Below are positions 2,178 through 35,294 of a stretch of 64,000 nucleotides of DNA, piece by piece. The notes beneath the pieces are model-generated. The model had not been told where the DNA came from and did no database searches. It saw nothing but the letters and a program-made list of their open reading frames with translations. The position numbers and the translations under genes were made by a program. Position 1 is the stretch's first letter, and every line of letters begins with the position of its first letter. This DNA comes from a virus: IMG/VR virus record IMGVR_UViG_3300017714_003662, positions 3,945 to 67,944 of that record; one strand, written 5' to 3'.

Positions 2178-2201
2178 TCTAATACTCTTTTTTTACTACT
2201 A

Positions 2202-4173: not shown

Positions 4174-4207
4174 ACATATATTTATTTGTATTAATGTTAT
4201 ATCAGTT

Positions 4208-4282
4208 TGGCACCAGTGGAAGGAATCGAACCCTCGTCGTCGGTTTTGGAGACCGCTGTGTTACCATTAGCACCACACTGAT
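4208..4282 (-). tRNA. tRNA-Trp(CCA)
   Basis: ATCAGTGTGGTGCTAATGGTAACAC, anticodon loop CTCCAAA, GGTTCGATTCC, GCCA end. Confidence 0.92.
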
Positions 4283-4288
4283 ATAATT

Positions 4289-4729: not shown

Positions 4730-4785
4730 TTATATAACATCTCCTGTGTTGCAGTATTTAGTTATACTATAATAACTTAATAATG

Positions 4786-6009
4786 TCAAGCACTTTCTTT
4801 AAATGAATTGCTATCTTTTAGTAAATAATCCAAGTAAGGAAATGTATCTAAAAACTTCCTTGGATTGTAACTATCCCAAAATTTTACTATTTGTGGGAAT
4901 AAATGATGATCCTCACCTAGTCCAAAATCATTATGTTCTAAACTTATTAACATATCTTCTGTAAAGTTATGTTCTTTTGGATCGTAATCTTCTAATTCTT
5001 TTCTAATTAAATCTACTTCTCTTTTTCTAATATCTTGTGTTAATCTTGTAAAATGTAGATAATCTTTATCCTGTGAATGATACACTGGTGTTACATCTAT
5101 CTTAAAGCCACTTGTTTTTGTTAGATTTACTAACTTATGGAATCCAACAAAATTTAATAGTTGTATAGTTGGTATTACTTTTACATCTATATTATCATAT
5201 TTGTCGTTAAGCTCTTTAAATAACTTTAAATTTTTTTCTACTACTTTCCATTTTGTAGGAAATCTTACATATTCTATTGTATCTCCAATACCATCTATAC
5301 TTAAATTAAATTCTACTCTTTTATACTTTGTAAATAAATCTACCCATTTTGATCTAAATATTGTAGCATTAGTCAAAAACTTTAAATCAACATTTTCACT
5401 ATAACCATTATCAACTTGCCAATTAATACTGTTTATTACTTGTGGCATTAGTAATGGTTCACCTCCTGCATAACATACTTTTCTAATGTGTTCTGCATTT
5501 TTGTGTAAGTAATCTACCCAACCATCGTCATGTGTTCCATTATATACATCATCCATAAGAAAAAAAGATTTATCTTCGTATTTTCTATATCTATCATCAA
5601 TAGAAGAACTGTTATGTGGATTGCACATTACACATTCTAAATTACAATAATTGCTAGGTCGTATATCATAATAAAGAGGTGGTGGACATTCTGTTAATTT
5701 ATTATCATAAAAGTATTTTGCTTCATTATAAAAATCTTTGTTAAAATCTTGTCTTTTAGATACAATACCATTTTTTTCATCATCTATGCAAACTTGACAT
5801 TCATGCGGCATAATGCGTTTATTAAATAGTTCTCTAAGTTTTTTATATGACTCACTGTTCCAATAACCTTCAACAGTGACAGGATCATCTGTTAAAAATC
5901 TTCCTCTATATTCACAGCAAGGTCTTGCATCGCTTGTGTCTCTTATGTTCTCTTTTAAATACATACTCAAAAAGGGTATAGAACAAAAGTTTTTAAATGT
6001 GTCATCCAT
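4786..6009 (-). CDS. Radical SAM protein with N-terminal twitch/SPASM-like domain
   Basis: N-terminal C..PCC..CxxC, CNLECVMC, AGGEPL, TNAT, SIDG. Confidence 0.92.
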   Translation of the reverse strand: MDDTFKNFCSIPFLSMYLKENIRDTSDARPCCEYRGRFLTDDPVTVEGYWNSESYKKLRELFNKRIMPHECQVCIDDEKNGIVSKRQDFNKDFYNEAKYFYDNKLTECPPPLYYDIRPSNYCNLECVMCNPHNSSSIDDRYRKYEDKSFFLMDDVYNGTHDDGWVDYLHKNAEHIRKVCYAGGEPLLMPQVINSINWQVDNGYSENVDLKFLTNATIFRSKWVDLFTKYKRVEFNLSIDGIGDTIEYVRFPTKWKVVEKNLKLFKELNDKYDNIDVKVIPTIQLLNFVGFHKLVNLTKTSGFKIDVTPVYHSQDKDYLHFTRLTQDIRKREVDLIRKELEDYDPKEHNFTEDMLISLEHNDFGLGEDHHLFPQIVKFWDSYNPRKFLDTFPYLDYLLKDSNSFKESA

Positions 6010-6142
6010 GCTTTTATTTATTTAGAAGTCTCCTTCAATTCCATTGATACTATAAGTCTTACCGTTAAAACCTTTGTCCATTTTTTCTTTATCAGACATA
6101 GTTTCTCCATCTTTGCGTTTTTTATGGTTAAACTTTTCTTTT

Positions 6143-6772
6143 TTATCGGTAGTAGAATCCAATTCTTGGGTTTTTGAGGTGACTGTCTGCATCTTCAAAA
6201 TTTTCTTGATAAAACCAATCATTGTATTTTTCTTTCAATTCTTTTTTATTATTATCCCATACTGGAATAATTTCTGATGCTCCTTTTGGAAAATCAGCAC
6301 CATGTCTTAGATGTATTTCAATAATTTTGTTACCTATAAATTCAACGTTTATATTATCTACATCATCAAAGTCGTATATAAAGTCAGGCAATTTCATAGT
6401 AGGCGGATCTATTATAATCCATCGATAAAACTCTGTTAAGTTTTCACGTGTATTAAATCCTTTACTAGCATGTATTGGAATAAGTTTGCCTTTTTTCCAT
6501 ACATAGTCTATACTAATTTGATCTCCTTCAAATACTTCACACCAAAATTGCCCAGGATTGATTGGATGAAATACATCTTTAGTTATATGTTCAAAACGTG
6601 CATCAATTCCCATACCGCTTAAATTATAAATCGGACGAATAATATACTCGTCCGATTCGGTTACTGGAACTCCTGCTGGCCCACATTTATACCCTAGCTT
6701 TAAACTAAGTTCTAATTTATTAAAAATCCAACTATGATGGGGATATATTTTCCATGCTTGCCAATCATCCAT
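6143..6772 (-). CDS. Conserved phage protein, ATP-grasp-like
   Basis: YIIRPIYNLSGMG, CEVFEG..SID, INVEFIG..IIEIHLR resemble ATP-grasp elements. Confidence 0.55.
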   Translation of the reverse strand: MDDWQAWKIYPHHSWIFNKLELSLKLGYKCGPAGVPVTESDEYIIRPIYNLSGMGIDARFEHITKDVFHPINPGQFWCEVFEGDQISIDYVWKKGKLIPIHASKGFNTRENLTEFYRWIIIDPPTMKLPDFIYDFDDVDNINVEFIGNKIIEIHLRHGADFPKGASEIIPVWDNNKKELKEKYNDWFYQENFEDADSHLKNPRIGFYYR

Positions 6773-6798
6773 TACTATATTTATATTTTACGAATGTT

Positions 6799-7257
6799 TT
6801 AAAAATTCTCTAGTAGTTTTTTAAATTTTCTTTTTGATTTACCACGTATTTTTGTTTTTTTGATTGCATCTAAATTAGATGTATCGTCACCAACAACTAC
6901 CATTGCAATCATACCCATTGTTGCATGTGGTGTACATTGGTATATGTATATACCTGGAGTATCAAATGTAATAGCAACTTCTTTGTTTACTTTTGATTTC
7001 TTAGGTGCTTTCCATCCATTTGGACCTGCAATGAATTCTACATTGTGACCTTTTGAAGTTGGAACCCATGTAATAGTGTCACCTACATCAATACGTGCAA
7101 TATCTTGACTGTAAACCATTTTAGCTCCGTCATCACGTTTGTTTAGCATGTCGATTGAAATGTCCTCTGCGAATGCAGGTACTACAAATAATGCTATAAA
7201 CATAGCAAATAGTAATGCAGGATATATTAATCCGGTCGTAAGTGTATTAAGTTTCAT
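6799..7257 (-). CDS. Pseudoazurin (type I blue copper protein) with signal peptide
   Basis: Signal peptide ending AFA; GHNVEF and YQCTPHATMGM copper ligands (H, C, H, M). Confidence 0.93.
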   Translation of the reverse strand: MKLNTLTTGLIYPALLFAMFIALFVVPAFAEDISIDMLNKRDDGAKMVYSQDIARIDVGDTITWVPTSKGHNVEFIAGPNGWKAPKKSKVNKEVAITFDTPGIYIYQCTPHATMGMIAMVVVGDDTSNLDAIKKTKIRGKSKRKFKKLLENF

Positions 7258-7353
7258 TTGTTTTCTCTTTCTATTGGAAGTCTATTGTACTTTTACTTAT
7301 ACAATTATATAGGTATTTTTTAATAATGTCGATGTGTAAAATTGTAGCACTTG

Positions 7354-7965
7354 CTATGTATAATTTCTCATTAAAAGACTAGGTCGATAAAAATCAATTG
7401 GCTTAACAGCATGCCAGGTGCTTTGATCAGCTGTAAATGCCCAAGCATGATTTGGTTTATACTCAACTTGTGCTTGTCCTTGTGTATAGTCATCATCATT
7501 GTCAATCTCATTAGCTAGTATTACACCGCTATCTTTTTTGCTGTCATCCTGTGCCATGTATACTTGGAAAGTAGTGAGTCGCATATTTGGATATGCATCA
7601 ACATCATTATGCCATGCTTGATCAAATCCTGGATAATCTAAATGCCATAGTTTACTATAATCATTATATTCAATTCCAGTTACTTCAGTAATTTTAGACT
7701 CTAGTTCATCTGTCCATAACCAATCATAAAAATCACGTAGAAAACCAGTTGCTTGTTCACGTGCTTCATCATCAATCATTATAACTTGACCTTGTGGATA
7801 AGCAGGATCACTTCCATCGTCGTTATATACTTTCCAATCTTTTACTGCGTCCGAGTATAATATATTTGTTAAATTTTTATATACTTCTGGTAGAAAAAAA
7901 GAACCCACTGATTCTTTATATTTCCAAGGAAAGTCTTTTTCTACAAATGAATTATCTGTTATCAT
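7354..7965 (-). CDS. 2OG-Fe(II) oxygenase
   Basis: WHND (HxD), WHAV distal His, RxS. Confidence 0.8.
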   Translation of the reverse strand: MITDNSFVEKDFPWKYKESVGSFFLPEVYKNLTNILYSDAVKDWKVYNDDGSDPAYPQGQVIMIDDEAREQATGFLRDFYDWLWTDELESKITEVTGIEYNDYSKLWHLDYPGFDQAWHNDVDAYPNMRLTTFQVYMAQDDSKKDSGVILANEIDNDDDYTQGQAQVEYKPNHAWAFTADQSTWHAVKPIDFYRPSLLMRNYT

Positions 7966-8375
7966 TATGTTCTATTTCCTCTAAGTGCAAAATATAAACC
8001 ACCTACCCATAACAATACGTGCAGATTATCGTACAGTATTACGTCCCAGAAACTTTCAGGCTGACCTACCCAAATAACTCCTGTCATAATACTACAAATT
8101 GTAATACCGCTAAATCGAGTTATAATATCATTAATTTCTTTTAGTTTCTGCCATATAACAGCTCCACCTACAATCAAGCCTATACCAGCACCAATCTCAC
8201 CGTATGCTGCAAACCACCATACAATATAAGGTAAATCAAAACTTTCAGCGCCTTCTACTGTCACTGGTAACTTACTAAAGCCTTGTTGTAAAAATACAAT
8301 AGCTAATGGTATTCTTATTAACCAATGACTCATACAAAACTCTGGTATATTTCTAATTTTATTTTTTATATTCAT
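7965..8375 (-). CDS. DoxX family membrane protein
   Basis: LIRIPLAIVFLQQGFSKLP...AYGEIGAGIGLIVG...TRFSG DoxX pattern. Confidence 0.8.
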   Translation of the reverse strand: MNIKNKIRNIPEFCMSHWLIRIPLAIVFLQQGFSKLPVTVEGAESFDLPYIVWWFAAYGEIGAGIGLIVGGAVIWQKLKEINDIITRFSGITICSIMTGVIWVGQPESFWDVILYDNLHVLLWVGGLYFALRGNRT

Positions 8376-8394
8376 TATATTTCCTCGTATTAAT

Positions 8395-9174
8395 TTAAAA
8401 AAATCTTTTTACTTTTACATTTTTAGGTATTGGAGTACCATCGTATTCTGCACTCCTTGGTTCAAATTCAAATACATCACTGTGTGGATATTGTTTTATA
8501 TTATCACTAACTACTTCTAAAAACGGTCTAGTGTCTAATCCATCTGGTTCATCTTCACTTGCAACAACATAGTCTAAGTTTCGTGTTTCGTACCATGCTA
8601 AACTTTCATCAGGATATCCTACTCCTACTACTAATAGTGGCGAGTAATAATCACTTTTTTCATATCCTAAAAATTCTTTCCATGCATTTCCACTTTCGTT
8701 ATGCATTGTATTTTGACTGTATCCTGTTTTTAATCCCATCATATGTGCTGCTAAAACCATTTGTCCAGAACTAATTCCTATTGACTTGTTTTGTGTATCT
8801 CTAAAAGTATCTTCAAATTCTTCATTTACACCCGGACCGTCTTCGTCTGCTGCCCATATATCCTGATGTATGTCTTCTGGCAAAGTTTTGCCATATACAA
8901 ATATCAACGGTGCATGAACTTGTGTATTATGCATTGCACTATTGACTTTATCCCAATGGTATCCCCATGTAAATCTTTCTTCATGCTCTTTAAGCATTGC
9001 TTCATTTGTAATTACAGCAAGAGTAAAATCTACTTCATTTTGTTTACTAGGAGCATTGACTGCTATCTCTGTTAAAAAATCTACAGTATCTTGATCTACT
9101 TTCTTGTCTAAGTAATTACGTTGAGCCTTACGACTCTCGTGCATACATTTCAATACAAAGTTTTTGTCTATCAT
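8395..9174 (-). CDS. Nitroreductase-fold protein
   Basis: SRKAQRNY, NAPSKQN, IGISSGQMVLAAHMMGLKTG, LVVGVGYP. Confidence 0.85.
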   Translation of the reverse strand: MIDKNFVLKCMHESRKAQRNYLDKKVDQDTVDFLTEIAVNAPSKQNEVDFTLAVITNEAMLKEHEERFTWGYHWDKVNSAMHNTQVHAPLIFVYGKTLPEDIHQDIWAADEDGPGVNEEFEDTFRDTQNKSIGISSGQMVLAAHMMGLKTGYSQNTMHNESGNAWKEFLGYEKSDYYSPLLVVGVGYPDESLAWYETRNLDYVVASEDEPDGLDTRPFLEVVSDNIKQYPHSDVFEFEPRSAEYDGTPIPKNVKVKRFF

Positions 9175-9581: not shown

Positions 9582-9603
9582 TTTTTGTTTCCTTATAAAA
9601 AAA

Positions 9604-9771
9604 CGACTATTCTGTTGCCAGGTCAGTCGCCAACCCCTACATGCCTATATTAGGCTGCTAATGCCATTTCTGGCGCATAATTGTTATTTGCAATTATAAA
9701 ATTTAACCTATTACGCTGTTACCCGGTTAACTCCACTTCACTTTCACACCTGTCGATCCTAGCTCAGCCCC
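9604..9771 (-). ncRNA. ssrA: Two-piece (permuted) tmRNA, coding piece; tag ANNNYAPEMALAA* at 9691-9650
   Basis: Starts GGGGCTGAGCTAGGATCGAC; resume codon GCA AAT AAC; tag ends ALAA-TAA; terminal hairpin CGACT..CTGGCAACAG..AGTCG plus T-run. Confidence 0.93.
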
Positions 9772-9783
9772 ATCAAAAATACA

Positions 9784-9975
9784 TTATTTTTTATCTAAAA
9801 CTTGTTTACATTTATCAGATGCATAAGTTTTAAACCAACGTGGAGCAAATGCATGGAAAAAACAAGCATATGCTGCTTTCTCTAATTGCCATGATATCCA
9901 CATTGCATGCTTAAAATGTTGCCATCTTGTCATGTTAGCTTCTTCTAAATGTAATTTACACTGTTTACTAAACAT
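9784..9975 (-). CDS. 63-aa protein (DUF6356-like) inside the tmRNA intervening segment
   Basis: AAGGA SD then ATG at 9975: MFSKQCKLHLEEANMTRWQHFKHA...FHAFAPRWFKTYAS; H..H..HAxxP pattern. Confidence 0.8.
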   Translation of the reverse strand: MFSKQCKLHLEEANMTRWQHFKHAMWISWQLEKAAYACFFHAFAPRWFKTYASDKCKQVLDKK

Positions 9976-9997
9976 TGTATATTCCTTAATGTATTTT

Positions 9998-10056
9998 TGG
10001 TGGAGCTGCTCGGTACTGCCCCGAGGTCCAGTATGTGTCCACGTTACTTCAACGCC
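9998..10056 (-). ncRNA. ssrA: Two-piece tmRNA, acceptor piece
   Basis: T-arm CTCGG-GGCAGTA-CCGAG (alphaproteobacterial-type T loop) then CAGCTCCACCA, which pairs with GGGGCTG giving the G3.U70 Ala determinant. Confidence 0.92.
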
Positions 10057-10063
10057 AACAATG

Positions 10064-10093
10064 TATTTATACACTAATATAAAATTTTGTCAA
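10064..10093 (-). promoter_or_regulatory. tmRNA promoter: TTGACA-N16-TATAAATA (sigma70-type and late-type overlap)
   Basis: Motifs read directly, 7 nt upstream of the acceptor piece. Confidence 0.7.
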
Positions 10094-10110
10094 CCAAAAT
10101 AAATATTACT

Positions 10111-11241
10111 ATGAACAAATATTTTTGTAGTCTCCCGTGGGTCCATTTACGTTTAGATTCAAGTTACAACGGTCAAACAGGTGTAAGTCCATGTTGTAAA
10201 TTTGATTGTGAAGAATGGGATAAACTTAATTCAGAAAATCATGTAAAGTATGGATTACAAAATGCCATGAATACAAATCCATTTAAAAAAATTAGGAGTG
10301 ATATGCTGAATGGAATACCAACTCCTGGATGTATAGACTGTTATGAGGATGATAAGCTACTAGGAGGGTCGATGCGTTCGGCTGCAAATAATTCATATAA
10401 AATTACAAATAAAAATTTAACCACAGAATTTCTTCACACAGAGTATATCGAAGTTTTTTTAGATAATACATGCAACCTTGAATGTAGAATGTGCAGTTCA
10501 ATTAACTCAACTAAATTACGTAGACGTGATAAACTGTTAGGAGATACTGTGCATCCAAACGCAACTTGCGATCCAAATTTACTTGATGAACTAGATTTAA
10601 ATCTTGTAAGAAAAATCAAGCTAATTGGTGGCGAACCATTATTATCAAAACATCATTTACCATTCTTAAAAAAGTTTCCAGACCACAGTAAACTAAATCT
10701 GCTATACAATACTAATGCTACTATTATACCTAGTGGTGAAACTAGAGATATAATGGCAAGTGTTAATGAATTAAATTTTATAATTAGCTGTGATGGAATT
10801 TACAAATATAACGATTATCAAAGATGGGGAAGTAATTTTGAAAGTATTATTGAAAACGGATTAAAAATAAAAAACACATTTAAAAATATTAAATGGTTTA
10901 CGTTTTTAAATACATTCTCAATATTGAATCTAAATGCTTACAAAAAAACCATAGAATGGTTTAAAGAAAATAATCTCGATACTATGTCAAACTGGGGAGA
11001 AGGTGATCTCAGTGTTTGTTTTGCACCAGATTGGTATGAAGAATGGATACTACAAGAAAACGATTGTCCTGAAGTTAGAAGTTATTTTAATGAAAGATGT
11101 CTGAACAGAAAGTATGATCCAAAAAAATGGCAGAAGTTTATTGATTTAATAAAAATTACAGATAAAATGTATGGAACACGTTTAGAAGATTACAATCCCG
11201 AATTAGCAGAACAATTACATAAACACAAAATTTATATCTAA
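10111..11241 (+). CDS. Radical SAM protein with N-terminal twitch/SPASM-like domain
   Basis: FCSLPW..PCC..CxxC, CNLECRMC, IGGEPL; start moved to ATG 10111 (TAAATA-N5-ATG). Confidence 0.92.
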   Translation: MNKYFCSLPWVHLRLDSSYNGQTGVSPCCKFDCEEWDKLNSENHVKYGLQNAMNTNPFKKIRSDMLNGIPTPGCIDCYEDDKLLGGSMRSAANNSYKITNKNLTTEFLHTEYIEVFLDNTCNLECRMCSSINSTKLRRRDKLLGDTVHPNATCDPNLLDELDLNLVRKIKLIGGEPLLSKHHLPFLKKFPDHSKLNLLYNTNATIIPSGETRDIMASVNELNFIISCDGIYKYNDYQRWGSNFESIIENGLKIKNTFKNIKWFTFLNTFSILNLNAYKKTIEWFKENNLDTMSNWGEGDLSVCFAPDWYEEWILQENDCPEVRSYFNERCLNRKYDPKKWQKFIDLIKITDKMYGTRLEDYNPELAEQLHKHKIYI

Positions 11242-14652: not shown

Positions 14653-14775
14653 TTGGTAATAGAAATTTAGTTTAGCACAACTTTTAATTTATTACAATGA
14701 TATTTATCAGAGATATAGCAGGATTGCTTACATATTATTGCAAAGACGATATGCGTGTAGTGCATACATTACAAT

Positions 14776-14806
14776 AAAAAAGCAAGCAATAAGAATATTG
14801 CTTGCT
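14776..14806 (-). terminator. Intrinsic terminator after the haloperoxidase
   Basis: AGCAAGCAATA-TTCT-TATTGCTTGCT followed by T-run on the minus strand. Confidence 0.8.
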
Positions 14807-14830: not shown

Positions 14831-16399
14831 TTAAACTGTTACTGATACTCCATCAAATCCAACAATAGTAATATTACCACGTGATTCAATTTGTCTGCTT
14901 ATATAGTCTTTAAAGTATGCAATAGCAACTTTCTGTCCTAGCATCATACCACAGTCGCCATCTGCACGATAGTGAACACCTGCAATGTTACGACCAATTG
15001 CAATATTTGCTGCAAGTTTATTAAGCTCTCCATGAACTGTTAGGTCACCTGAATCGGAGCGAGTATAACTTATTAGTGAGTCACCTGTTGTTGAATGTTG
15101 AACTGCACTATAATTACCCATTGTTGACCAATTTTCATCTGCATACATTAGTTTCAATATCGTTGCATTTGCACCTGCAATCACAGCATGACCTGCTGGA
15201 TATGATGGATGTGTTGGCGAACCTTCTGCATATAGTAATGGTAAGAAAGGTGCATTGTCGCCACCGTTTGCTTGGTTAAATGCCTTTACTGCATCAACTG
15301 TTGACTGTGCATTATTTAAAAGTGATGCAGCTTGGTATACTGGTGTATCACCTGACATACCTGTTGCAACACGAGCTGCCATTGTTTCAGGACGTAGTTT
15401 ACAGTGATGTCTCCATTTCTGTACCCATGATGCTGTTAACGCATTAGCTGATACTGCTGCAACCGCTGTTGCTTGAAATGCTGGGCCTGCATTAGTTAAA
15501 AATGCACCACTATTTGACGGATCAACATTTGTGTATGCTGTGTGTCTTGTACCGCCATGTGCTAGCATTGCTGCTGCATAATAAAAATGTTGATATACAA
15601 AGTCACTGTGAACAAGTGTTCCTAGCCCACGACCATTAAAAATATATTTTGGAGATGAATCTGCTTGCTGTGCTACTGGAACAGCCCCGTCTGCTATACT
15701 TTTAAAGTTTGTTTTTGTGTTACCATAAATGCCATTATGGACATTATATTTTTGTGTAACTGTATGGGCGCCTAATGCAAAGTCATGTGCAAGGAATTGT
15801 GAAATATATGGGCCTGCTAAACAACCAGGTGCTACGCCACGAAATAGTTCTGCACGTGTTAATGCTCCACTTGTTCCATTCACTGGTCCTTTGTATTCTG
15901 CACCAAATGCATTTAAGTTTGTTACGGCACGGTCTGCTGCTGTGTTTGTAACACCAAAGTTAAGATCATTAAATGAGGTATCTCTTTGGATATTCATTTC
16001 ATAAACTTCGACCATTTCTCCTGCACCCCAATCGCTATCAAGTGTAGGTGGCGCCGGCATTGTCATACCATATGCATCTTGTCCTGTTATTTCACATGCA
16101 AATGCACCCAATGGGTTTGCTAATTTACGTGTAGCATTTGAAGAAAGACTTACATTTTCTAAATCTTGTTTGGTTCCACGTTCCATTGCTAATGCTAGTT
16201 TTACAACATCTGCTTCGCTTGGCAGTAGGGTTGTTGAGTTATGATCTAATGTTTTGCTAAACATAGATTCTGTTTTTAATGTTGTTATATCGTTATTAAC
16301 AGCCTGGTCACGTTCGAACCCACTCATAGCATCTGCTAATCTTTGAGTTCGTTCTTTACGAAATCTGCTGATCGAATAATCTTCTTCTCTTTTGGACAT
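14831..16399 (-). CDS. Vanadium-dependent haloperoxidase (algal/cyanobacterial VBPO type)
   Basis: QKWRHHCKLRPE, EGSPTHPSYPAGHA, ELNKLAANIAIGRNIAGVHYRAD, GPYISQF, GRGLGTLVHSD. Confidence 0.93.
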   Translation of the reverse strand: MSKREEDYSISRFRKERTQRLADAMSGFERDQAVNNDITTLKTESMFSKTLDHNSTTLLPSEADVVKLALAMERGTKQDLENVSLSSNATRKLANPLGAFACEITGQDAYGMTMPAPPTLDSDWGAGEMVEVYEMNIQRDTSFNDLNFGVTNTAADRAVTNLNAFGAEYKGPVNGTSGALTRAELFRGVAPGCLAGPYISQFLAHDFALGAHTVTQKYNVHNGIYGNTKTNFKSIADGAVPVAQQADSSPKYIFNGRGLGTLVHSDFVYQHFYYAAAMLAHGGTRHTAYTNVDPSNSGAFLTNAGPAFQATAVAAVSANALTASWVQKWRHHCKLRPETMAARVATGMSGDTPVYQAASLLNNAQSTVDAVKAFNQANGGDNAPFLPLLYAEGSPTHPSYPAGHAVIAGANATILKLMYADENWSTMGNYSAVQHSTTGDSLISYTRSDSGDLTVHGELNKLAANIAIGRNIAGVHYRADGDCGMMLGQKVAIAYFKDYISRQIESRGNITIVGFDGVSVTV

Positions 16400-16427
16400 A
16401 TAGCTTTCTCCTTTGAACTAACTATAT

Positions 16428-17606
16428 TTATTTAATAGTAGAAGATTCGTATACACCGTTATATTGATTATTTACTAAAATAAATGTTGCACATTTACTA
16501 ATATTCTTTAATCTATTTGCACCTACGTATGTGCATGTGCTTCTAATACCACCTAGTATGTCTTGCATTGTATTTGCAATTTTACCTCTATATGGAACTA
16601 AAGCTTCTCTACCTTCGCTTGATCTATAATCTTTGAGTCCGCCAAAATGCTTTTTATTAGCTGCATCGCTACTCATACCGTAAAACTGAACATAATGCTT
16701 TTGTTCAACACGGCGTGTTTCTTTTGTTTGGTCGCCCACATATTCACGTATAATCTCATTTGTTTCGTAATACTTTGTAATCACTTCGCCACCGCCCTCA
16801 TCGTGTCCTGCTAACATTCCTCCTAGCATTACAAAATCTGCTCCGCCTGCAAACGCTTTAGCTACATCCCCCGAACATGTACAACCACCATCAGCAATAA
16901 CAAGCCCACCAAGCCCATGAGCAGCATCTGCACACTCCATGACTGCGGATAATTGCGGATAACCAATACCAGTTTTAATACGGGTCGTACAAACCGACCC
17001 AGGGCCAATCCCCACTTTAACAATATCTGCTCCACTTAAGATTAACTCCTGTGTTTGATCTGATGTAACTACGTTACCAGCAATGATTACTATATTAGGA
17101 TATAGACTACGAAATTCTCTCACAAAGTCAGTAAAACGTTCACTATAACCATTTGCTACATCAATACATACAAATTTTATAGTGTGTGCTTGTTCGTATA
17201 CTGTACGAAACTTTTCATGATCTCGATCTGTAATTCCCATACTGTATGCAACAAAATCAGATCTTTGTGGATTGTTAGGATCATCAAAGAAGTTTACTAA
17301 ATCATTTACCTCATATGTTTTTACTAAACATGTAAACATTTTTTGGCTAGCAAGTATATCTGCCATTTTAAATGTTCCTACACCGTCCATATTAGCAGCC
17401 ATAATAGGAACACCACGCCAATCTCTATCTTGATTTTGTACAACAGGATATCCATCAGGTAACACATCTTTTGCCACATAAGGTTTATAATTACAAAATG
17501 TAAAACCACGTTCTAAATCTACTTCTTTACGACTTCCTAATGTACTACGTTTTGGACGTATTAATACATCACTGTAGTCAAGTTTTACTTCTGTTTCAAT
17601 TCTCAT
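16428..17606 (-). CDS. guaC: GMP reductase
   Basis: KLDYSDVLIRPKRSTL, MAANMDGVG, IDVANGYS, GIGPGSVCTTR, FYGMSS, YRSSEG; start at ATG 17606. Confidence 0.95.
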   Translation of the reverse strand: MRIETEVKLDYSDVLIRPKRSTLGSRKEVDLERGFTFCNYKPYVAKDVLPDGYPVVQNQDRDWRGVPIMAANMDGVGTFKMADILASQKMFTCLVKTYEVNDLVNFFDDPNNPQRSDFVAYSMGITDRDHEKFRTVYEQAHTIKFVCIDVANGYSERFTDFVREFRSLYPNIVIIAGNVVTSDQTQELILSGADIVKVGIGPGSVCTTRIKTGIGYPQLSAVMECADAAHGLGGLVIADGGCTCSGDVAKAFAGGADFVMLGGMLAGHDEGGGEVITKYYETNEIIREYVGDQTKETRRVEQKHYVQFYGMSSDAANKKHFGGLKDYRSSEGREALVPYRGKIANTMQDILGGIRSTCTYVGANRLKNISKCATFILVNNQYNGVYESSTIK

Positions 17607-18022
17607 TTGTTTTCCTTTTCGCATACACGTCTACGCAAATCACTACTACTGAATCTATGTTCACGTTTATTAAAGTATACCTCAATTCCTCTTGCGGCAC
17701 AGGTAGCTCTGCCTGTAAATTCTTTTTCTCTGTACTCTTCTCCCAAGAATCTAACATCTATTTGAAACAGTTCAAGTATATCAATTAGATCTTCTTCTGT
17801 TTGATATGGAACTATTTCGTCAACAAACTTTAATGCATTAAGTTGTGCATAACGTTCTACCATTGTCTGTATTGGTTTATTTTTTGTATCAGGTCTATCG
17901 ATTGTTGGGTCGCTTTGTAGTCCAACAATTAAGTAATCGCAATTTGCCTTTGCTTCTCTAAGCATACCTATATGACCAGCATGAAGCAAATCAAATGTGC
18001 TAAATGTAATTCCTACTTTCAT
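17603..18022 (-). CDS. Glycerol-3-phosphate cytidylyltransferase-like (TagD family)
   Basis: STFDLLHAGH (HxGH), FSSSDLR. Confidence 0.88.
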   Translation of the reverse strand: MKVGITFSTFDLLHAGHIGMLREAKANCDYLIVGLQSDPTIDRPDTKNKPIQTMVERYAQLNALKFVDEIVPYQTEEDLIDILELFQIDVRFLGEEYREKEFTGRATCAARGIEVYFNKREHRFSSSDLRRRVCEKENK

Positions 18023-18213
18023 TTTTTATCTTTTAGTTTCATATGTTGTTTAGTAAACCATACAGGAACTTCGGGGTTTAAGTCAATTAATTCTTGCTCT
18101 GTATATGTTTCAGGAAGACGCACTCCATGTTCTTTAAACTTTTCATAAAAAAAGTCGGCTAATTCGTCTTTGTGTTTATTCCGATATGGAGATTTTTTAG
18201 TCCAATTTTTCAT
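18019..18213 (-). CDS. Hypothetical protein
   Basis: ORF overlapping both neighbours in an operon. Confidence 0.6.
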   Translation of the reverse strand: MKNWTKKSPYRNKHKDELADFFYEKFKEHGVRLPETYTEQELIDLNPEVPVWFTKQHMKLKDKK

Positions 18214-18607
18214 TACGCATTGCCTTTTTCTCTAAACTTAATTTTTCTTTTGCACTCATTGCATATGCAGCTCCCGCTAATAAAACAATAGCACCTGCTT
18301 CTGCTAAAAGTGTTAGTGGCTCTCCGTCTTTACTGTGTAGAATAATCAATCTACACAACGCTGTCATTGCAATAATGATTGGCAGTGTAACTGGTATTCT
18401 ATTGCTGATATAGTAAGCACCCACCATGCCTACAATCTCTGTATAAATGAAAAGCAAAAATAAATCAGCAAGTGCTATATTACGTGTCTGCCACATACCC
18501 CACACTTCTAATAATGCAGCTACTACTGTTAACATACCAATACCTCCTAGCATTAGCTTTTCGGTAATTGTAGTTGTCCAATGTAGTCTTTTATTTAAGT
18601 TGTTCAT
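18197..18607 (-). CDS. Phosphate-starvation-inducible PsiE family membrane protein
   Basis: LADLFLLFIYTEIVGMV..Y..RIPVTLPIIIAMTALCRLII. Confidence 0.8.
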   Translation of the reverse strand: MNNLNKRLHWTTTITEKLMLGGIGMLTVVAALLEVWGMWQTRNIALADLFLLFIYTEIVGMVGAYYISNRIPVTLPIIIAMTALCRLIILHSKDGEPLTLLAEAGAIVLLAGAAYAMSAKEKLSLEKKAMRNEKLD

Positions 18608-19312: not shown

Positions 19313-19615
19313 TTAATCAGTTTTTTCAATTGTAACATCTAAAGGATAACTATTACGTCTCGCCTCTGTGATTGTTTCAACACATTTTTGTTCAGCAACT
19401 TCGTAGCTATATGTGCCACATATTCCTCTACCTTTTTCATGAACCTCAAGCATCACACTTTTAGCTGTTTCCATTGTGTGTCCATATATATGAGTAAGTA
19501 CAGATATTACAAACTCCATAGGAGTGCTATCATCATTTAGCATAATAACATTATACCTAGGTGGACTTTTTAGTTTTGTTACTTCTGCAACTTCTTCATG
19601 TGATACTTGAGCCAT
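19313..19615 (-). CDS. clpS: N-end rule adaptor ClpS
   Basis: PPRYNVIMLNDDSTPMEFV, MLEVHEKG, YEVAEQK, YPL. Confidence 0.95.
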   Translation of the reverse strand: MAQVSHEEVAEVTKLKSPPRYNVIMLNDDSTPMEFVISVLTHIYGHTMETAKSVMLEVHEKGRGICGTYSYEVAEQKCVETITEARRNSYPLDVTIEKTD

Positions 19616-19624
19616 GATTACCTC

Positions 19625-20050
19625 TTAATCAATTTTAATTGTTTTTTGTTTCATTTCTTCTGGAATGATACGTTCTAGTTCAATATAAAGCATACCATTT
19701 TCCATTTGAGCACCATTAACAACTACATTATCTGCTAATGTCCAAATACGGTTAAACTTTCGTTGTGCAATACCTTTATGAACGTATTCGCCTTGTTCTT
19801 CAACTTCTTCAGGATCATGACTGATCATTAATTTACCATCTTCGGTTGTAATATCAAGGTCTTCTTTTCGCACACCAGCAAGTGCAATTTCAATTTGAAA
19901 TTTGTTGCCTTCTTTGCGAATATTGTAAGGTGGGTATCCACTACTTGCTTTATTATTTTGTGCATATTGGAACATGTCCGAAATGATGCTGTCAAAGCCT
20001 ACAGCATAAGGTGTGATTTTATTCAAATCAAGTGTTGTTAATCTTGTCAT
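19625..20050 (-). CDS. Small heat shock protein Hsp20 (IbpA-like)
   Basis: GFD, YPPYNI, EIALAG, HKGIAQRKF, MENGML, IPEE. Confidence 0.95.
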   Translation of the reverse strand: MTRLTTLDLNKITPYAVGFDSIISDMFQYAQNNKASSGYPPYNIRKEGNKFQIEIALAGVRKEDLDITTEDGKLMISHDPEEVEEQGEYVHKGIAQRKFNRIWTLADNVVVNGAQMENGMLYIELERIIPEEMKQKTIKID

Positions 20051-20098
20051 AGTTTATCTCCTTTTAAGCAAGATATTTTGAGACCCATTAGGCGTCTC
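20051..20098 (-). promoter_or_regulatory. ROSE-like RNA thermometer in the hsp20 leader
   Basis: ATCTTGCTT-AA-AAGGAGAT hairpin (UUGCU opposite SD, bulged G) preceded by GAGAC/GTCTC hairpin. Confidence 0.7.
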
Positions 20099-20130
20099 GG
20101 TTATATACACTCAGTGTGTAATTCTTTCTA

Positions 20131-20352
20131 TCAAGTTTCTTTTGATAGTCTACGTCTATGACGAGCATTGGCGGCTGCCTTTGCTTTTAGACGTTTTTCA
20201 GTGTTACTTGTAAAATGCCTACGTTCTCGGATCTCGTTAAACAATCCGTCACGAAGCAGTTTCTTTTTTAATTGTCTCATTGCTTTATCAACATTATTGT
20301 TGTGGACACTTACAGTCATGCCCTTTTCGCCTTTGATATGATTATTACTCAT
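20131..20352 (-). CDS. rpsU: Ribosomal protein bS21
   Basis: VSVHNNNVDKAMRQLKKKLLRDGLFNEIRERRHF..EKR. Confidence 0.9.
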   Translation of the reverse strand: MSNNHIKGEKGMTVSVHNNNVDKAMRQLKKKLLRDGLFNEIRERRHFTSNTEKRLKAKAAANARHRRRLSKET

Positions 20353-20359
20353 TTAAATC

Positions 20360-20884
20360 TCATGTTTTGAACTTGCCCATAACTCTATTATGTTGTGTGC
20401 TAATTTGTTCGTATTCTTCGCCGATTAATTCTGCAAATGTATTTAGCAGATCTTTTGCTAAATCTTGTTTCCCACGTTCTCTTCCACGTAACATAACTGA
20501 TACGATTAAATTAGATCCTTTATCAATAAATTTTTGCCCTTGCTTTGCTTTAGTATTTAAATCGCCTGTGTCAATATTTAATCCAAGACGTATTTCTTTT
20601 GTTTCTATTTGGCTAGCTCTTGCGGCTCTTTTTTGTTCTTTTTCTTTTTGTTTTAACATATATACATGTTTACTTAGTTCAATGATTTTACATACTGGCG
20701 GTTCTGCTTTTTCAGCGATCAACACCAAATCTAATCCTTGATTGCGAGCTTCGTCAATAGCATCTCGCTTGCTCATTATTTTACTTTCACCATCTGTAAA
20801 ATTGACTCTTACCATTTCAGCTTGAATTTTATTGTTTGCTAAAATTTGCGGACCTCTGTCCCTTTGCTTATAATTTTTTTTCAT
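20360..20884 (-). CDS. infC: Translation initiation factor IF3
   Basis: GLDLVLIA..AEPPVCKI, KEIRLG..IDTGDLNTK, LRGRE. Confidence 0.93.
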   Translation of the reverse strand: MKKNYKQRDRGPQILANNKIQAEMVRVNFTDGESKIMSKRDAIDEARNQGLDLVLIAEKAEPPVCKIIELSKHVYMLKQKEKEQKRAARASQIETKEIRLGLNIDTGDLNTKAKQGQKFIDKGSNLIVSVMLRGRERGKQDLAKDLLNTFAELIGEEYEQISTQHNRVMGKFKT

Positions 20885-22062
20885 CAGTTTTTTATCATAA
20901 TTGGACCATGTCCAAGTGTTATCACTTGATCTGTTACAACTATTTTTTTTACCCCTTTTTCAGCAAGCTCTGGTAATTCATACTGTATATCTAGAAGTGC
21001 ATTATCCAGTATTTTTCTTAATCCCCTAGCTCCTATTTGTTCTTGATTAGCAATCTTTGCCACCTCTTCTAATGCTTTTATTTTAAACTCTATCTCAATT
21101 TTGTCAAGTAAAAAAAGCTCTTTAATTTGATTTACTATACTATTTACTGGTTCAGTTAATATTTTTATCAAATCTTCTTCCGAAAGTTCTTCTAGTATAT
21201 TAACGCTAGGCAATCTACCGATAAATTCAGGAATTAATCCATACTTTACTAGATCTCTTGTTTCTAAGTTATCTTCCCAATCATCTAATTTAGATTGTTC
21301 AGTTCCGTTGAATCCAATTTTACTTTTGCCTAGTCTTTGTATTACTGTATCTTCTAAACCAACAAATGCTCCACCAACAATAAAAAGTATATTGCTTGTA
21401 TCAATGTCAACTTTTTCTGGATTTGCTTGTGGCTTATTTGGAACAGTAACTATTGTTCCTTCCATAAGTTTAAGTAAACTTTGTTGCACACCTTCGCCGC
21501 TCACATCTCTACTTAAACTCATCATATCACTACGTTTTGCTTTTTTATCAATTTCGTCTACATAAATTATACCCATCTCTGTTCGATCAATATCAAAGTC
21601 AGAGTTTTGAAATAATTTTTGTATTAAAACTTCTGTATCATCTCCTGCATATCCACTTTCAGTTAATGTTGTTGCATCTGTAATAACAAAAGGAACATTT
21701 AAATATTCTGCTAATGTTTGTGCCATAAGTGTTTTACCAGTTCCTGTGGGTCCTGCAATAAGAACATTACTTTTTTGTAATTTAGATTTTGATTTTAGTC
21801 TTTTAAAATGGTTATATACTGCAACACTCAAACTCTTTTTTGCTTTGTCTTGACTAATTACGTGCTTGTCTAAATATTGATGTATTTGACGTGGACTTGG
21901 AATATTTTTAAATATCTTTTTTGTTTTAGTCTCTTTATCTAATATAGTATGGCATAGGTCAACACATTCATTACAAATGTGTATTCCATTGTTTCCTGCT
22001 AATAGCTTTTTTACCTGACTTGTGTCTTTATCGCAAAAGTTGCAAATTGTACTAGATTTCAT
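20884..22062 (-). CDS. clpX: ATP-dependent Clp protease ATPase ClpX
   Basis: Zn-binding CNFC..CNEC, GPTGTGKT, DEIDK, RDVSGEGVQQ, IGF loop, GARGLR. Confidence 0.96.
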   Translation of the reverse strand: MKSSTICNFCDKDTSQVKKLLAGNNGIHICNECVDLCHTILDKETKTKKIFKNIPSPRQIHQYLDKHVISQDKAKKSLSVAVYNHFKRLKSKSKLQKSNVLIAGPTGTGKTLMAQTLAEYLNVPFVITDATTLTESGYAGDDTEVLIQKLFQNSDFDIDRTEMGIIYVDEIDKKAKRSDMMSLSRDVSGEGVQQSLLKLMEGTIVTVPNKPQANPEKVDIDTSNILFIVGGAFVGLEDTVIQRLGKSKIGFNGTEQSKLDDWEDNLETRDLVKYGLIPEFIGRLPSVNILEELSEEDLIKILTEPVNSIVNQIKELFLLDKIEIEFKIKALEEVAKIANQEQIGARGLRKILDNALLDIQYELPELAEKGVKKIVVTDQVITLGHGPIMIKN

Positions 22063-22501
22063 ATGGTCCCTCTGGATTCATTTGTAGTTCTACGAATTTA
22101 TCAATATCTTTAACTTTTCTTACAATTAGATTTGTACCTGTTGCATTAATAAGTCTGGCTGTTTCTCTTCTTTTGTATTTACTACTATAGAACATAACAC
22201 CATCATTACTAATAGTAGGCTTGATAAGTGCAGCCATAATGTCTTCCCATGCACAAGTATCTATATCAATTATCATTAAATCACATGTAGTGCTTACATT
22301 CCACATCCATGCTAATGTCTCGCTATTTGTTTTATTTGGTTGAACGTAAAATACAATACTTGTATAAATGTATTTTTCAAATATACCTTTAACATTGTCA
22401 ATAAAATTTTCATCTGTACTTGTTACTAGCACAGTCATTCCATCATCACTCATATGCAAATCTGGATATGTTACAGTGTATACACTATTATCTGTTCTCA
22501 T
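22052..22501 (-). CDS. Hypothetical protein
   Basis: 149 aa ORF coupled in operon. Confidence 0.7.
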   Translation of the reverse strand: MRTDNSVYTVTYPDLHMSDDGMTVLVTSTDENFIDNVKGIFEKYIYTSIVFYVQPNKTNSETLAWMWNVSTTCDLMIIDIDTCAWEDIMAALIKPTISNDGVMFYSSKYKRRETARLINATGTNLIVRKVKDIDKFVELQMNPEGPYEI

Positions 22502-23313
22502 TTTATGTCTCTTGTTTCTGGTCTATTATCTAGTTGATCATTTGTAAAATTTGTCCAAGGCTCAAAAATTGTATTACAACATTCTGTTGTATAGTTAGTC
22601 CAATTTTCTAATTCAGGAACTTGTAATATGTCTAATAATTTTGAATATTCATTTATGTCATTTTTTAAAATTAGCTTGTCTATAAATAATGTATGAACTT
22701 TTACATATTTCGATACATTTGAAACTATTTCTGCATACAACGTTTTTTTTCTAGTGTTATAATCTTGCCATGCATCTTGAACAGTAAGGTTTGGTCTTAT
22801 AAATGCAAGTCTTTTTGCAAAAAGAGAAGAATATATATCTGTTTCTGGAATAATTATAGCCTTAGTATTACTTTCTTCTAATATTCTTAATATAAGATCT
22901 TTTGCTGTCTTATCTTTTAATCCCCATTTTTCTATCTCTTGTGATCCTTTATTTCCGGTATGTATTGGATTATGCCAAGGAAGAATTTTGTAGCATATAT
23001 TTTTGTAATCTGGATCATGTTTTATGTCTTTTTCTATTAAATGTTTCTTATAATCCTTAAAATTGTGTGTTGTTACTAATTTGTTTGAATACGGATCCAT
23101 TGGATCATCTCTAAAAGATTGAAAATTAGCTAAATGCCAATTTGATCCAGGACATGCATAGTCTGTTGCAATTTGTCCATATGTATAGCCTTTTCTTTCA
23201 TAGCGTATTTTTTTATCAAATTTAGGATAGCCTACATGTTGATTAATAAACCATGAAAGCCAAGTTCCCGAGTCACCGGGTTCGTACCAACAGCCAAATA
23301 CATCATTCGTCAT
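22498..23313 (-). CDS. Hypothetical protein, possible sulfotransferase-like P-loop fold
   Basis: N-terminal WYEPGDSGTWLSWFINQH resembles the PRSGTxxLxxxLxxH loop. Confidence 0.5.
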   Translation of the reverse strand: MTNDVFGCWYEPGDSGTWLSWFINQHVGYPKFDKKIRYERKGYTYGQIATDYACPGSNWHLANFQSFRDDPMDPYSNKLVTTHNFKDYKKHLIEKDIKHDPDYKNICYKILPWHNPIHTGNKGSQEIEKWGLKDKTAKDLILRILEESNTKAIIIPETDIYSSLFAKRLAFIRPNLTVQDAWQDYNTRKKTLYAEIVSNVSKYVKVHTLFIDKLILKNDINEYSKLLDILQVPELENWTNYTTECCNTIFEPWTNFTNDQLDNRPETRDIK

Positions 23314-24784
23314 TTCTCAAATCTTCTTTATTTTTATTTAGCATGTCTTGTTCCATGACTTTTTTAGCATGTGCATTTTCTTTTACTTGTGCAATAACTG
23401 TGTTATAATTTTCATCTTCTGGATTATAAATTCTACCTTTATACCTAACCGCACCCTCAATGTTATCAAACTCTTCTATGGTTTCAAGTTCTTCTAATTC
23501 TATAATTTCTAAAGGCTGTTCTACTTCTTCAATTTTTAATTCAGGTTCTGGTTGTGGTATAATTTTTTTAGGTGCAGCAGGTGTTGGTAAAACAGGTTTT
23601 ATTTTACGATTACTTTCAATTACTGTAATACCAGCAATAACAAGAACAATAGCTAATGGATCAAATACAATAACAAGAATAATAATAACCCAACGAACTG
23701 CTTCTTCTAGTGTATTTTTATCAGTATCTCCGTATACTAGTTCTGCAATATACTTTACTGGTCCAACTTCTGCTTCTAATACACGTGCTTCTGCTTCGAT
23801 AGTATATTTCTTTTCAAATAGACCATCTAGTTGTTCATTTGATATAATAATTAAATTACGCTGTTTTAATATTTCTTCTGTGTTGTCTACTGTAGCACCT
23901 TGTCCTAGTTGAGAACGTAGTCTATCAATTAATTCATTACTGTTTTGTATTTGTTGTTCTGCAACACCACGTAGTCTTTGTATTTCTTCTCTTGCTTCTA
24001 TAGTAATTGTATCCACACTGGTAGTCAATTTGTTTAGCGTTTGTAATACTACATCTCTTCTAACTAACTGTGTATCTCTAAATGCTTGCACTGCCGCTGC
24101 TGTTTTAGGTCCATAACGACCATCTGGATTAGAACCAATCATACTTTGTGCTTTTTTGATTTGGTTTGTTTCAATGTATTCATCTAGTAATGCAATTTTT
24201 CTATCTATATTTGTAAGTTCACTTTGATATGGCTTTTGAGAATCCACTCTAGATTGTCTTTGTGCATTTATAATAGCTTCTTGATCTTCTATAGCAGGCT
24301 TGACTGCATCATATGCTGTTGCAATACGATCTTGTTCTTTGTCAATTTTTGATTGAATACCATCATCTTGTGTCTCATCTGCACTATCTAACTTTTGTAT
24401 TTTAGATTCTGCACGTACGATAATACTTTCGTTTCTTGCGATGTCTGTTGTAATACGTTCTAATTGTGCAACATTTTCTGCGCCTGCACTTTGTTGTTCG
24501 ATGTGTGCTTTTGATAAAAAACCAAAAATACCCATGCTTGTAATAAACATTAATAATATTACAGCCATTGTTAAATATGTTTTTATTAAAAATGGAGCTT
24601 TATTCCAATACAAATGTAGCCAGACTGCACTAGTTAATTTGCCTACTTCTAATACTGTTCCCATAATAATAATAGGAATTGCCGCTGCAGCAAAGATTGC
24701 TACCAGTCCCACAATACTATAATAAGCCGCTACTACTGATATTGACAATGCGGCTAGGATTGTCCATAAACCAAATATACGCAT
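23303..24784 (-). CDS. Membrane-anchored coiled-coil protein with peptidoglycan-binding-like motif
   Basis: 3 N-terminal TMs, long coiled coil with PDGRYGPKTAAAVQAF, C-terminal TM (IVFDPLA). Confidence 0.75.
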   Translation of the reverse strand: MRIFGLWTILAALSISVVAAYYSIVGLVAIFAAAAIPIIIMGTVLEVGKLTSAVWLHLYWNKAPFLIKTYLTMAVILLMFITSMGIFGFLSKAHIEQQSAGAENVAQLERITTDIARNESIIVRAESKIQKLDSADETQDDGIQSKIDKEQDRIATAYDAVKPAIEDQEAIINAQRQSRVDSQKPYQSELTNIDRKIALLDEYIETNQIKKAQSMIGSNPDGRYGPKTAAAVQAFRDTQLVRRDVVLQTLNKLTTSVDTITIEAREEIQRLRGVAEQQIQNSNELIDRLRSQLGQGATVDNTEEILKQRNLIIISNEQLDGLFEKKYTIEAEARVLEAEVGPVKYIAELVYGDTDKNTLEEAVRWVIIILVIVFDPLAIVLVIAGITVIESNRKIKPVLPTPAAPKKIIPQPEPELKIEEVEQPLEIIELEELETIEEFDNIEGAVRYKGRIYNPEDENYNTVIAQVKENAHAKKVMEQDMLNKNKEDLRNDE

Positions 24785-24787
24785 AAA

Positions 24788-25141
24788 TTACTTCCCTAAC
24801 ATATAACGAACCGCATGTCCTTCTTCAACTAGCAGATCATTTATGTTTGTAAGTGTTTCATCTTCATTTTGGACTTGTAAGATTCCAAGGACACGGCCAT
24901 ACTTGCCACGCTTATTCAGAATAGTTTCAACTACAAACTCTCGTGGTAGAAGTTCTATCAAACGTTGCTTAGCCGCAAGGCCTTTTTCTTTTTCTGATAA
25001 ATTTGTTGTGCGTGATTCAGGTGTATTGATACCATATAATCTAATACGTTGACGAACAAATACGTCAAATCCTAGATCAATTTCAGCGTCTACTGTGTCA
25101 CCATCAATCACTCTTATTAATCTTGCTTTGTAAGTATACAT
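24788..25141 (-). CDS. Thermonuclease (SNase-like)
   Basis: RVIDGDT, RIRLYGINTPE, GKYGRVLG, LVEEGHA. Confidence 0.92.
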   Translation of the reverse strand: MYTYKARLIRVIDGDTVDAEIDLGFDVFVRQRIRLYGINTPESRTTNLSEKEKGLAAKQRLIELLPREFVVETILNKRGKYGRVLGILQVQNEDETLTNINDLLVEEGHAVRYMLGK

Positions 25142-25273
25142 GAATTTTAAACTTCCAACCTTATAAGAATACTTTCTCTTGTTAGTGTATTTATCGTGTA
25201 TTTCCTACTATATATATGCTATTTTAACATTTTTGCCTATATAGGAAATCGAAGTGTAAAATTATACATATAT

Positions 25274-35219: not shown

Positions 35220-35294
35220 TGGTAGCCCGTAGGGGAATTGAACCCCTCTTTCAAGGTTGAAAACCTTGCGTCCTAACCGATAGACGAACGGGCC
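35220..35294 (-). tRNA. tRNA-Glu(TTC)
   Basis: GGCCCGTTCGTCTATCGGTTAGGAC, CAAGG-TTTTCAA-CCTTG, GGTTCAATTCC, ACCA. Confidence 0.95.

Follow-up and report, generated by a model that had tools for sequence, protein, structure and literature searches.

Results

The gene and its flanking signals

The gene studied here lies at 14831-16399 on the minus strand of a 64,000-nucleotide stretch of DNA (the window), which covers positions 3,945 to 67,944 of the IMG/VR virus record IMGVR_UViG_3300017714_003662. It encodes a homologue of the vanadium bromoperoxidases (VBPO) of algae and cyanobacteria. An earlier reading of this stretch, the original prediction, had described a phage-encoded vanadium haloperoxidase; its observation is confirmed as a whole, and its interpretation is partly supported. 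The gene and the signals around it are:

14831..16399, minus strand: coding sequence of the bromoperoxidase-type protein, an open reading frame (ORF) with an ATG start, 522 aa and no internal stop codon
16408..16413, minus strand: Shine-Dalgarno sequence AAGGAG
16425..16435, minus strand: TTAAATAAATA motif, candidate promoter element, 26-36 nt 5' of the ATG
14771..14806, minus strand: intrinsic-terminator-like hairpin (11-bp stem, 4-nt loop, T run)
16428..17624, minus strand: IMPDH/GMP-reductase-family gene, directly upstream of the haloperoxidase-type gene

The Shine-Dalgarno sequence and the terminator that had been claimed for this gene are both found. AAGGAG stands 8 nt 5' of the ATG, and AAGGAG or AGGGAG occupies the same place before seven homologous genes on other contigs. 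The 11-bp stem (14806-14781, minus strand) begins 25 nt past the stop codon and is followed by TTTTTATTGT; the 78 nt after the stop codon fold with -18.1 kcal/mol (RNAfold). When the downstream regions of 14 loci in all from the phage clade described below were folded in the same way, a hairpin with a T run followed, by our own reading, about 11 of the 13 other genes.

The gene was also said to have a TAAATA motif of its own. The motif is present as ATTAAATAAATA at about 16425-16435 (minus strand), but the claim of a promoter rests on a common hexamer: there are 72 copies on the minus strand of the window, of which 25 fall into the 80-nt zones ahead of starts, zones that make up 12% of the sequence. 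The motif overlaps the stop codon of the upstream GMP-reductase-family gene, the intergenic gap being only 28 nt. A scan for sigma-70-type promoters found 8 sites against 16.3 expected, with none upstream of the haloperoxidase-type gene. Six other loci (L002, L109, L084, L110, L085 and L092) have a related (G)TTAAATA(G/A)T element before the gene, and it is plausible that the gene has its own promoter. At these six loci the 90 nt before the gene hold the element, a hairpin with a T-rich tail, AAGGAG or AGGGAG and the ATG in this order, and the upstream neighbours differ. Because six relatives have the upstream element and the hairpin in common, the gene looks like a self-contained cassette that may move between phage genomes. 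The order within the cassette is odd, in that the promoter-like motif precedes the terminator-like hairpin.

As predicted, the protein has no signal peptide: the maximal Kyte-Doolittle hydropathy in residues 1-60 is -0.13, and the hydropathy scan found no transmembrane-like window anywhere in the 522-aa protein.

Family assignment and predicted fold

The bromoperoxidase-type identity is borne out over the full length of the protein, both by sequence (phmmer) and by predicted fold (Foldseek). The best match among PDB sequences is VBPO I of Ascophyllum nodosum (1QI9; E 3.5e-47, query residues 34-494 against 43-504 of the chain), followed by nine further vanadium bromoperoxidase sequences with E values of 2.4e-44 to 7.6e-38; the iodoperoxidase of Zobellia gave a much weaker phmmer match than these ten. 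An AlphaFold2 model, built from an alignment of 24 sequences, has a mean pLDDT of 85.8 and a pTM of 0.90. Compared with the PDB by Foldseek, the model gave 12 matches with E <= 0.001, all of them bromoperoxidases (Corallina, Ascophyllum, Acaryochloris) with TMq 0.81-0.87, and it has the whole-chain helical-bundle fold of the algal and cyanobacterial enzymes. NapH1-type enzymes, Curvularia vanadium chloroperoxidase, Zobellia vanadium iodoperoxidase and PAP2 acid phosphatases all stayed at TM <= 0.29 against the model.

The three vanadate-binding motifs of the original prediction can be read as written in the 522-aa translation, namely QKW-RHHCKL-RPE, HPSYPAGH and GRNIAGVHY, and their co-occurrence is far above chance. 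Ascophyllum VBPO I (1QI9) and II (5AA6) are the best fold matches (TMq 0.86-0.87, rmsd 3.1-3.3) and share with the phage protein the Lys-x7-Arg spacing, a Trp three residues before the Lys, a His five residues before xGH and the Arg-x5-His arrangement. The identity is about 26%, the algal enzyme has Ser where the phage protein has Ala402, and the charged N-terminal helix of the model (residues 2-26) is the phage protein's own. Algal bromoperoxidases are extracellular, and the carrier here is a phage rather than a eukaryote. The enzymes of Corallina (1QHB, 1UP8) and Acaryochloris marina (5LPC) have the same fold (TMq 0.81-0.85) and the same three motifs, and the C-terminal 139 residues match with E 2e-24 to 6e-23, but they are 75-145 residues longer than the phage protein, and the Corallina enzymes have Ser in xGH against the phage Ala. 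According to the available part of PMC11871015, the position three residues before the Lys is Trp in the Ascophyllum and Curvularia enzymes, as it is in the phage protein, but Arg in those of Corallina and Acaryochloris, and the Acaryochloris enzyme is a dodecamer. The 666-aa protein P0240 had been considered as the Acaryochloris enzyme, which proved wrong.

The same fold is found in 'PAP2 superfamily' proteins of three giant viruses in BFVD (Sylvanvirus, Hokovirus HKV1 and Yasminevirus; TMq 0.73-0.85, E 1.8e-30 to 5e-22), which differ in that their identity is 24-29% and that they belong to viruses of eukaryotes. All 24 members of alignment A1 match PF01569 weakly (best E 1.6e-06). Another family, PF22778, stands in the precomputed annotation of relatives, and the Pfam scan gave no such match even at E 10. 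Since the Ser of Ser-Gly-His is Ala402, a change that may or may not permit halide oxidation, we class the protein by its sequence and fold as a homologue, a candidate rather than a proven vanadium haloperoxidase.

The active site and Ala402

The residues of the putative site were taken from alignment to solved enzymes:

D266, W325, K328, R336, H397, A402, G403, H404, R470, H476, protein numbering: site residues

In the Curvularia enzyme, as given in the available part of PMC9144378, His496 is the covalent ligand of vanadate, Lys353, Arg360, Ser402, Gly403 and Arg490 are hydrogen-bond donors, and His404 is catalytic. The counterparts in phmmer alignments are H476, K328, R336, A402, G403, R470 and H404, so that all are kept save the Ser. 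H476 aligns with the His of 1QI9, 5AA6 and 1QHB and is present in 144 of the 145 members of the phage clade. K328, R336 and R470, which correspond to residues that hydrogen-bond to vanadate oxygens, are each present in 145/145, as is H404; G403 is present in 144/145. The second shell is equally well kept, as W325, H397 and D266 align with Ascophyllum residues (D266 with Asp278; W325 lies three residues before the Lys and H397 five residues before xGH) and are found in all 145 members. Across the clade, 35 of the 522 positions are invariant, including D266, W325, K328, R336, H397, H404 and R470. Second-shell residues of this kind are dispensable for phosphatases. The role of the Trp is taken from the available part of PMC11871015.

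The replacement of the vanadate-binding Ser, which the original prediction had singled out, is real (Ala402 stands in place of Curvularia Ser402) but not unusual: most of the closest relatives have Ala here, and in the phage clade it is close to fixation. Of the 146 nearest representative clusters in a HMMER search free of any motif filter, 93 carry Ala before GH, 26 Ser, 3 Gly and 1 Thr (23 were unmatched by the regular expression), and 141 of the 145 phage-clade members have Ala. Ala402 thus appears to be a family-wide natural variant. The link that the original prediction drew to a brown-algal iodoperoxidase is tentative, and a Ser402Ala mutant of the Curvularia enzyme may be active. The parts of PMC10427571 and PMC13198595 that were available do not mention a Ser-to-Ala change.

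The gene resides on phage DNA

That the window is genuine phage DNA, as predicted, is supported by the IMG/VR record, its replication genes, a jumbo-phage-like helicase and a colinear contig. The source record has 67,944 bases and is estimated to be 19% complete. The window encodes a DnaB-type helicase, a primase, a UvsW-like helicase, ribonucleotide reductase, ClpX/ClpP/ClpS, IF3 and many radical-SAM proteins, and helicases of Sinorhizobium phage Phosso (469 kb) and of PA5oct-like Pseudomonas jumbo phages share 52-57% identity with its helicase. The jumbo phage of which the contig is a fragment is uncultured, marine and a relative of PA5oct and Phosso. The type of its transfer-messenger RNA (tmRNA), together with the alphaproteobacterial host of the nearest isolate, gives a hint that the host may be an AT-rich marine alphaproteobacterium.

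If the gene were not the phage's own, it could have come from an assembly chimera or from a bacterial fragment binned as viral. The overall GC of the ORF (0.398), joint highest of the 25 genes measured, would fit such an origin, but the excess sits in codon positions 1 and 2, and its GC3 of 0.189 equals the mean of the 24 other window genes (0.190 +/- 0.033). Moreover, L111, a metagenome contig, aligns colinearly with 21.5 kb of the window (78-92% nucleotide identity), the gene and both junctions included; L002 preserves the order ClpX-IF3-Hsp20-ClpS-cytidylyltransferase-GMP reductase-gene, and L109 has the same ligase and radical-SAM genes as neighbours. In 11 sequencing-run rows from seawater, marine and viral metagenomes, at least half of the words sampled from a 4.8-kb stretch were present, and none of the 78 bacterial-genome homologues placed in a tree (see below) falls in the clade of the gene. 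On the basis of colinearity, composition and a clade without bacterial-genome sequences, we reject a chimera or bacterial contamination, which is hardly credible. Of the words sampled from the 4.8-kb stretch, a fraction of 0.74 is present in one metatranscriptome run (X8), a figure that shows neither transcription nor its absence.

The gene lies on phage DNA, is missing from related phages and is self-contained, with its Shine-Dalgarno sequence and terminator. No match with E <= 1e-5 was found in 50,697 GenBank phage records, PA5oct-like phages and Phosso included, and no phage entry in BFVD shares the fold, the only viral matches with E <= 0.001 being the three giant viruses. We therefore regard the gene as an accessory gene and not a core part of the phage.

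A phage clade with several genomic contexts

Relatives are numerous. A word-indexed search gave 1437 with E <= 1e-5 among 8000 candidates scored, an exhaustive search gave 2283 representative clusters with E <= 0.001, and a pattern scan found 26 on IMG/VR contigs. From two larger pattern scans we used the best 80 of at least 418 relatives on metagenome contigs and the best 80 of at least 572 in bacterial and archaeal species genomes; both scans selected by the xAGH motif, and absence from bacteria here means absence among those examined. None of the best 80 of at least 572 bacterial and archaeal matches exceeded 40% identity.

In a FastTree tree of 424 sequences (rows shorter than 400 aa and exact duplicates were dropped), the query falls in a clade of 145 tips with support of 99, made up of 114 catalogue proteins, 19 metagenome loci, 11 IMG/VR loci and the query. 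None of the 78 bacterial-genome sequences in the tree is in this clade. A quick IQ-TREE run on 60 chosen rows, without L081 (<400 aa), recovered a 24-row phage group with SH-aLRT 100 and an adjoining 20-row bacterial group, also at 100; the position of P0122 and L130 between the two groups was unresolved. Among 401 alphaproteobacterial genomes sampled, two had a match with E <= 1e-10, one of which was the query centre itself. Thus, among the sequences examined, the clade appears only on phage DNA and metagenome sequences. One fused form was seen, a 1110-aa protein of 36% identity outside the clade, and none within it, which is weak evidence. On the IMG/VR side, L093-L103 and L105 (33-39% identity) also lie outside the phage clade, on contigs labelled as giant-virus metagenome-assembled genomes or on contigs of 95-619 kb.

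The nearest cellular relatives are the bacterial 'xAGH' homologues from Bacillota, Pseudomonadota, Acidobacteriota, Verrucomicrobiota, Myxococcota and others (33-40% identity among the best 80 of at least 572). They have Ala at the same place and form the adjoining branch in the trees, but stay outside the phage clade; to our knowledge, no member has been characterised.

The gene is under purifying selection, with dN/dS of 0.10-0.23 in 22 listed pairs among eight close genes. None of 120 phage-clade proteins has a hydrophobic N-terminal leader. Outside the clade, a hydrophobic N-terminus occurs in 17 of 133 relatives, and a crude regular expression finds an RR motif in 40 of the 133; the phage forms seem to have lost, or never had, the export signals borne by many cellular forms.

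The genomic contexts of clade members, taken from PHROGs and Pfam scans of the neighbouring genes (L110 and L116 were left out of the scan), are given below with the identity to the window protein.

Window, L002, L109, L111 (84-91% identity): after a GMP-reductase-family gene, near DNA ligase
L084, L110, L085, L092 (73-78%): portal, prohead protease, major capsid protein, one ORF, then the gene
L087, L113, L119 (48-49%): DNA polymerase, dUTPase, the gene, head protease, endolysin, GroEL
L096, L129 (42-48%): after capsid genes
L003 (=L090) (46%): after two ~850-aa ORFs and a lytic transglycosylase; RecT and terminase are close by
L117 (46%): PhoH, guanylate kinase, sigma factor
L086 (45%): directly before head-tail adaptor and tail genes
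L088 (45%): RNA ligase, polynucleotide kinase, the gene, dCMP deaminase, helicase
L118 (45%): MazG
L122 (45%): after a virion structural protein
L091 (44%): between a capsid gene and an internal-virion-protein gene

The capsid proteins of Phosso and PA5oct share 67-69% identity with that of L084; therefore, phages of the L084 type belong to the same jumbo-phage group and have the gene at another place. On L111, which carries the 91% identical relative, a peroxiredoxin gene (phrog_2281) lies at L111:15273-15827, 3.7 kb from the haloperoxidase-type gene. The segment that holds it, L111:15241-17876, is replaced in the window at 10093-11230 by a radical-SAM-like gene.

Discussion

Proposed activity and alternative functions

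We think it reasonably probable that the protein is an active, leaderless, soluble vanadate-dependent haloperoxidase of the bromoperoxidase type, encoded by a non-core accessory gene of a marine jumbo phage. From the residues, fold, phage context and purifying selection described above, its chemistry and role would be as follows. By homology with the solved enzymes, vanadate would be held covalently by His476, and Lys328, Arg336 and Arg470 as well as the Ala402-Gly403 backbone would hydrogen-bond to it. Hydrogen peroxide and vanadate would give a peroxo-vanadate, with His404 as the acid-base residue; the halide would then attack the peroxo-vanadate and depart as hypohalous acid. Bromide or iodide is the most probable substrate, and chloride is a possible one because Trp325 stands three residues before the Lys, as in chlorinating enzymes.

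As the protein has no export signal, it would be produced inside infected cells. The likeliest role, which we hold loosely, is that the enzyme would consume peroxide in a halide-dependent way during infection and deliver reactive halogen into the lysate at lysis. Peroxide removal fits the peroxiredoxin on the contig of the closest relative and would suit a peroxide-sensitive host.

Several points weigh against an active haloperoxidase. Every solved bromoperoxidase whose alignment we saw has Ser at the position of Ala402, and we know of no characterised Ala-type enzyme. The loop 393-399, which bears His397, is the sole low-confidence stretch of the AlphaFold2 model. The sole Pfam match is PAP2, with 24.2 bits against a cut-off of 27.2 (residues 392-497), and neither NCBIfam nor PHROGs has a useful family for the 522-aa protein. 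The gene neighbours of ten bacterial homologues include no conserved partner and give no functional hint. The protein is cytoplasmic, where the supply of vanadate is uncertain and phosphate competes for the site, and hypohalous acid formed inside the cell would also harm phage production. According to the available part of PMC11871015, phosphate replaces vanadate in the Acaryochloris crystal, and halide preference is not traceable to a single residue, so it is not readable from the sequence.

The main rival is a phosphatase, in which the same His nucleophile, Lys, Arg and acid-base His would cleave phosphomonoesters and bring a gain of phosphate in a phosphorus-poor sea. The PAP2 match in Pfam agrees with such a role, as do the names of some relatives ('membrane-associated phospholipid phosphatase') and the phosphate-related genes nearby, which are PhoH on relative L117 and, at a distance of 1.8 kb from the gene, a PsiE-family (phosphate-starvation-inducible E) membrane protein at 18197-18607 (minus strand); nor was any Ala-type member seen to be a characterised haloperoxidase. 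The active site is common to haloperoxidases and PAP2 phosphatases, and vanadate inhibits phosphatases (PMC9144378, available part). However, the fold over all 522 residues is that of a bromoperoxidase, whereas the PAP2 acid phosphatases (Escherichia blattae 1EOI, PhoC; ~215-240 residues) have the catalytic motifs in common with the phage protein but are less than half its size and overlap with it in the core of the fold only (TMq <= 0.14, TMt <= 0.29). The phage protein neither reaches the gathering score of PF01569 nor has the compact domain of ~230 residues of these phosphatases. The clade keeps W325, H397 and D266 without exception, although none of them belongs to the three phosphatase motifs, and the Lys-to-Arg spacing is the same as in Ascophyllum VBPO, where the alignment is ungapped. 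Metal-free chloroperoxidase has low phosphatase activity, which we also count against a phosphatase here. Taking both sides together, we consider this role rather unlikely.

It is also conceivable, if improbable, that the enzyme is a substrate-selective halogenase that brominates a defined molecule (a signal of the host or of a competitor, such as an alkyl quinolone or an acyl-homoserine lactone, or else a nucleotide or a base) and sets no hypohalous acid free. Bacterial haloperoxidases brominate exogenous alkyl quinolone signals, likewise without a conserved neighbourhood (PMC11312541, available part), and genes of nucleotide metabolism do lie beside the gene, with the GMP-reductase family in the window, dUTPase on L087 and L119, dCMP deaminase on L088 and MazG on L118. 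Against this, the selective enzymes belong to the NapH1-like branch, with which the model has a TM of ~0.2 (3w35/3w36, 8cxl, 9l8x), the scanned neighbourhoods hold no biosynthetic partner genes, and algal-type sites are solvent-exposed and release diffusible HOX according to the available part of PMC12633397. Halogenation of nucleotides or DNA, for which the neighbouring nucleotide-metabolism genes are the only basis, is very improbable. As the gene often sits in structural modules, the enzyme might in many such phages be made late and travel in or on the virion. It would then work extracellularly, and the virions, or the surrounding lysate, would make reactive bromine or iodine at the host surface; outside the cell, seawater would supply vanadate, halide and hydrogen peroxide. 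We regard such a virion-borne enzyme as quite doubtful.

Implications

Vanadium haloperoxidases drive much of marine bromine and iodine chemistry, with hypobromous acid, bromoform and iodocarbons among the products, and in the sea they are credited to seaweeds, cyanobacteria and some bacteria. No report of a phage-encoded vanadium haloperoxidase was found in the literature searched, most subscription journals being outside the reach of the search. The clade described here comprises at least 145 sequence clusters on at least seven phage genome types and was not seen in the bacterial genomes searched. If the phage enzyme is an active haloperoxidase, infection and lysis would be a route for peroxide removal and reactive-halogen production that is included in no model, and phages would gain a chemical tool (an oxidant, a signal quencher or a halogenating agent) without a described counterpart among phage accessory genes. 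If the enzyme is virion-borne, marine phages would be an unrecognised source of reactive halogen and halocarbons. This compact, leaderless and naturally Ala-substituted set could also be used to probe what the conserved Ser adds to catalysis and halide choice.

Other features of the window

The window has an unusual load of redox and radical enzymes, at 1149-9174, 29512-30387 and 37122-38183 on the minus strand, with five radical-SAM proteins (two of them SPASM), DoxX, a nitroreductase and a Glu/Leu/Phe/Val dehydrogenase. A cupredoxin of the plastocyanin/azurin family is encoded at 6799-7257 (minus strand). A block of proteostasis and translation genes at 19313-25894 (minus strand) holds ClpS, Hsp20, IF3, ClpX, a staphylococcal-nuclease-like gene and ClpP, of which ClpX-IF3-Hsp20-ClpS is kept in L002.

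A permuted (two-piece) tmRNA of the alphaproteobacterial type lies at 9601-10107 on the minus strand (RF01849, 91 bits; RF04321, 98 bits). Its tag, as predicted by ARAGORN, is ANNNYAPEMALAA, and the segment is 92% identical in L111. Nine tRNA genes (Leu twice, Arg, Trp, Glu, Gly, Ser, Ala and Thr) are found at 225-388, 4208-4282 and 35220-37068 (minus strand), six of them in one cluster.

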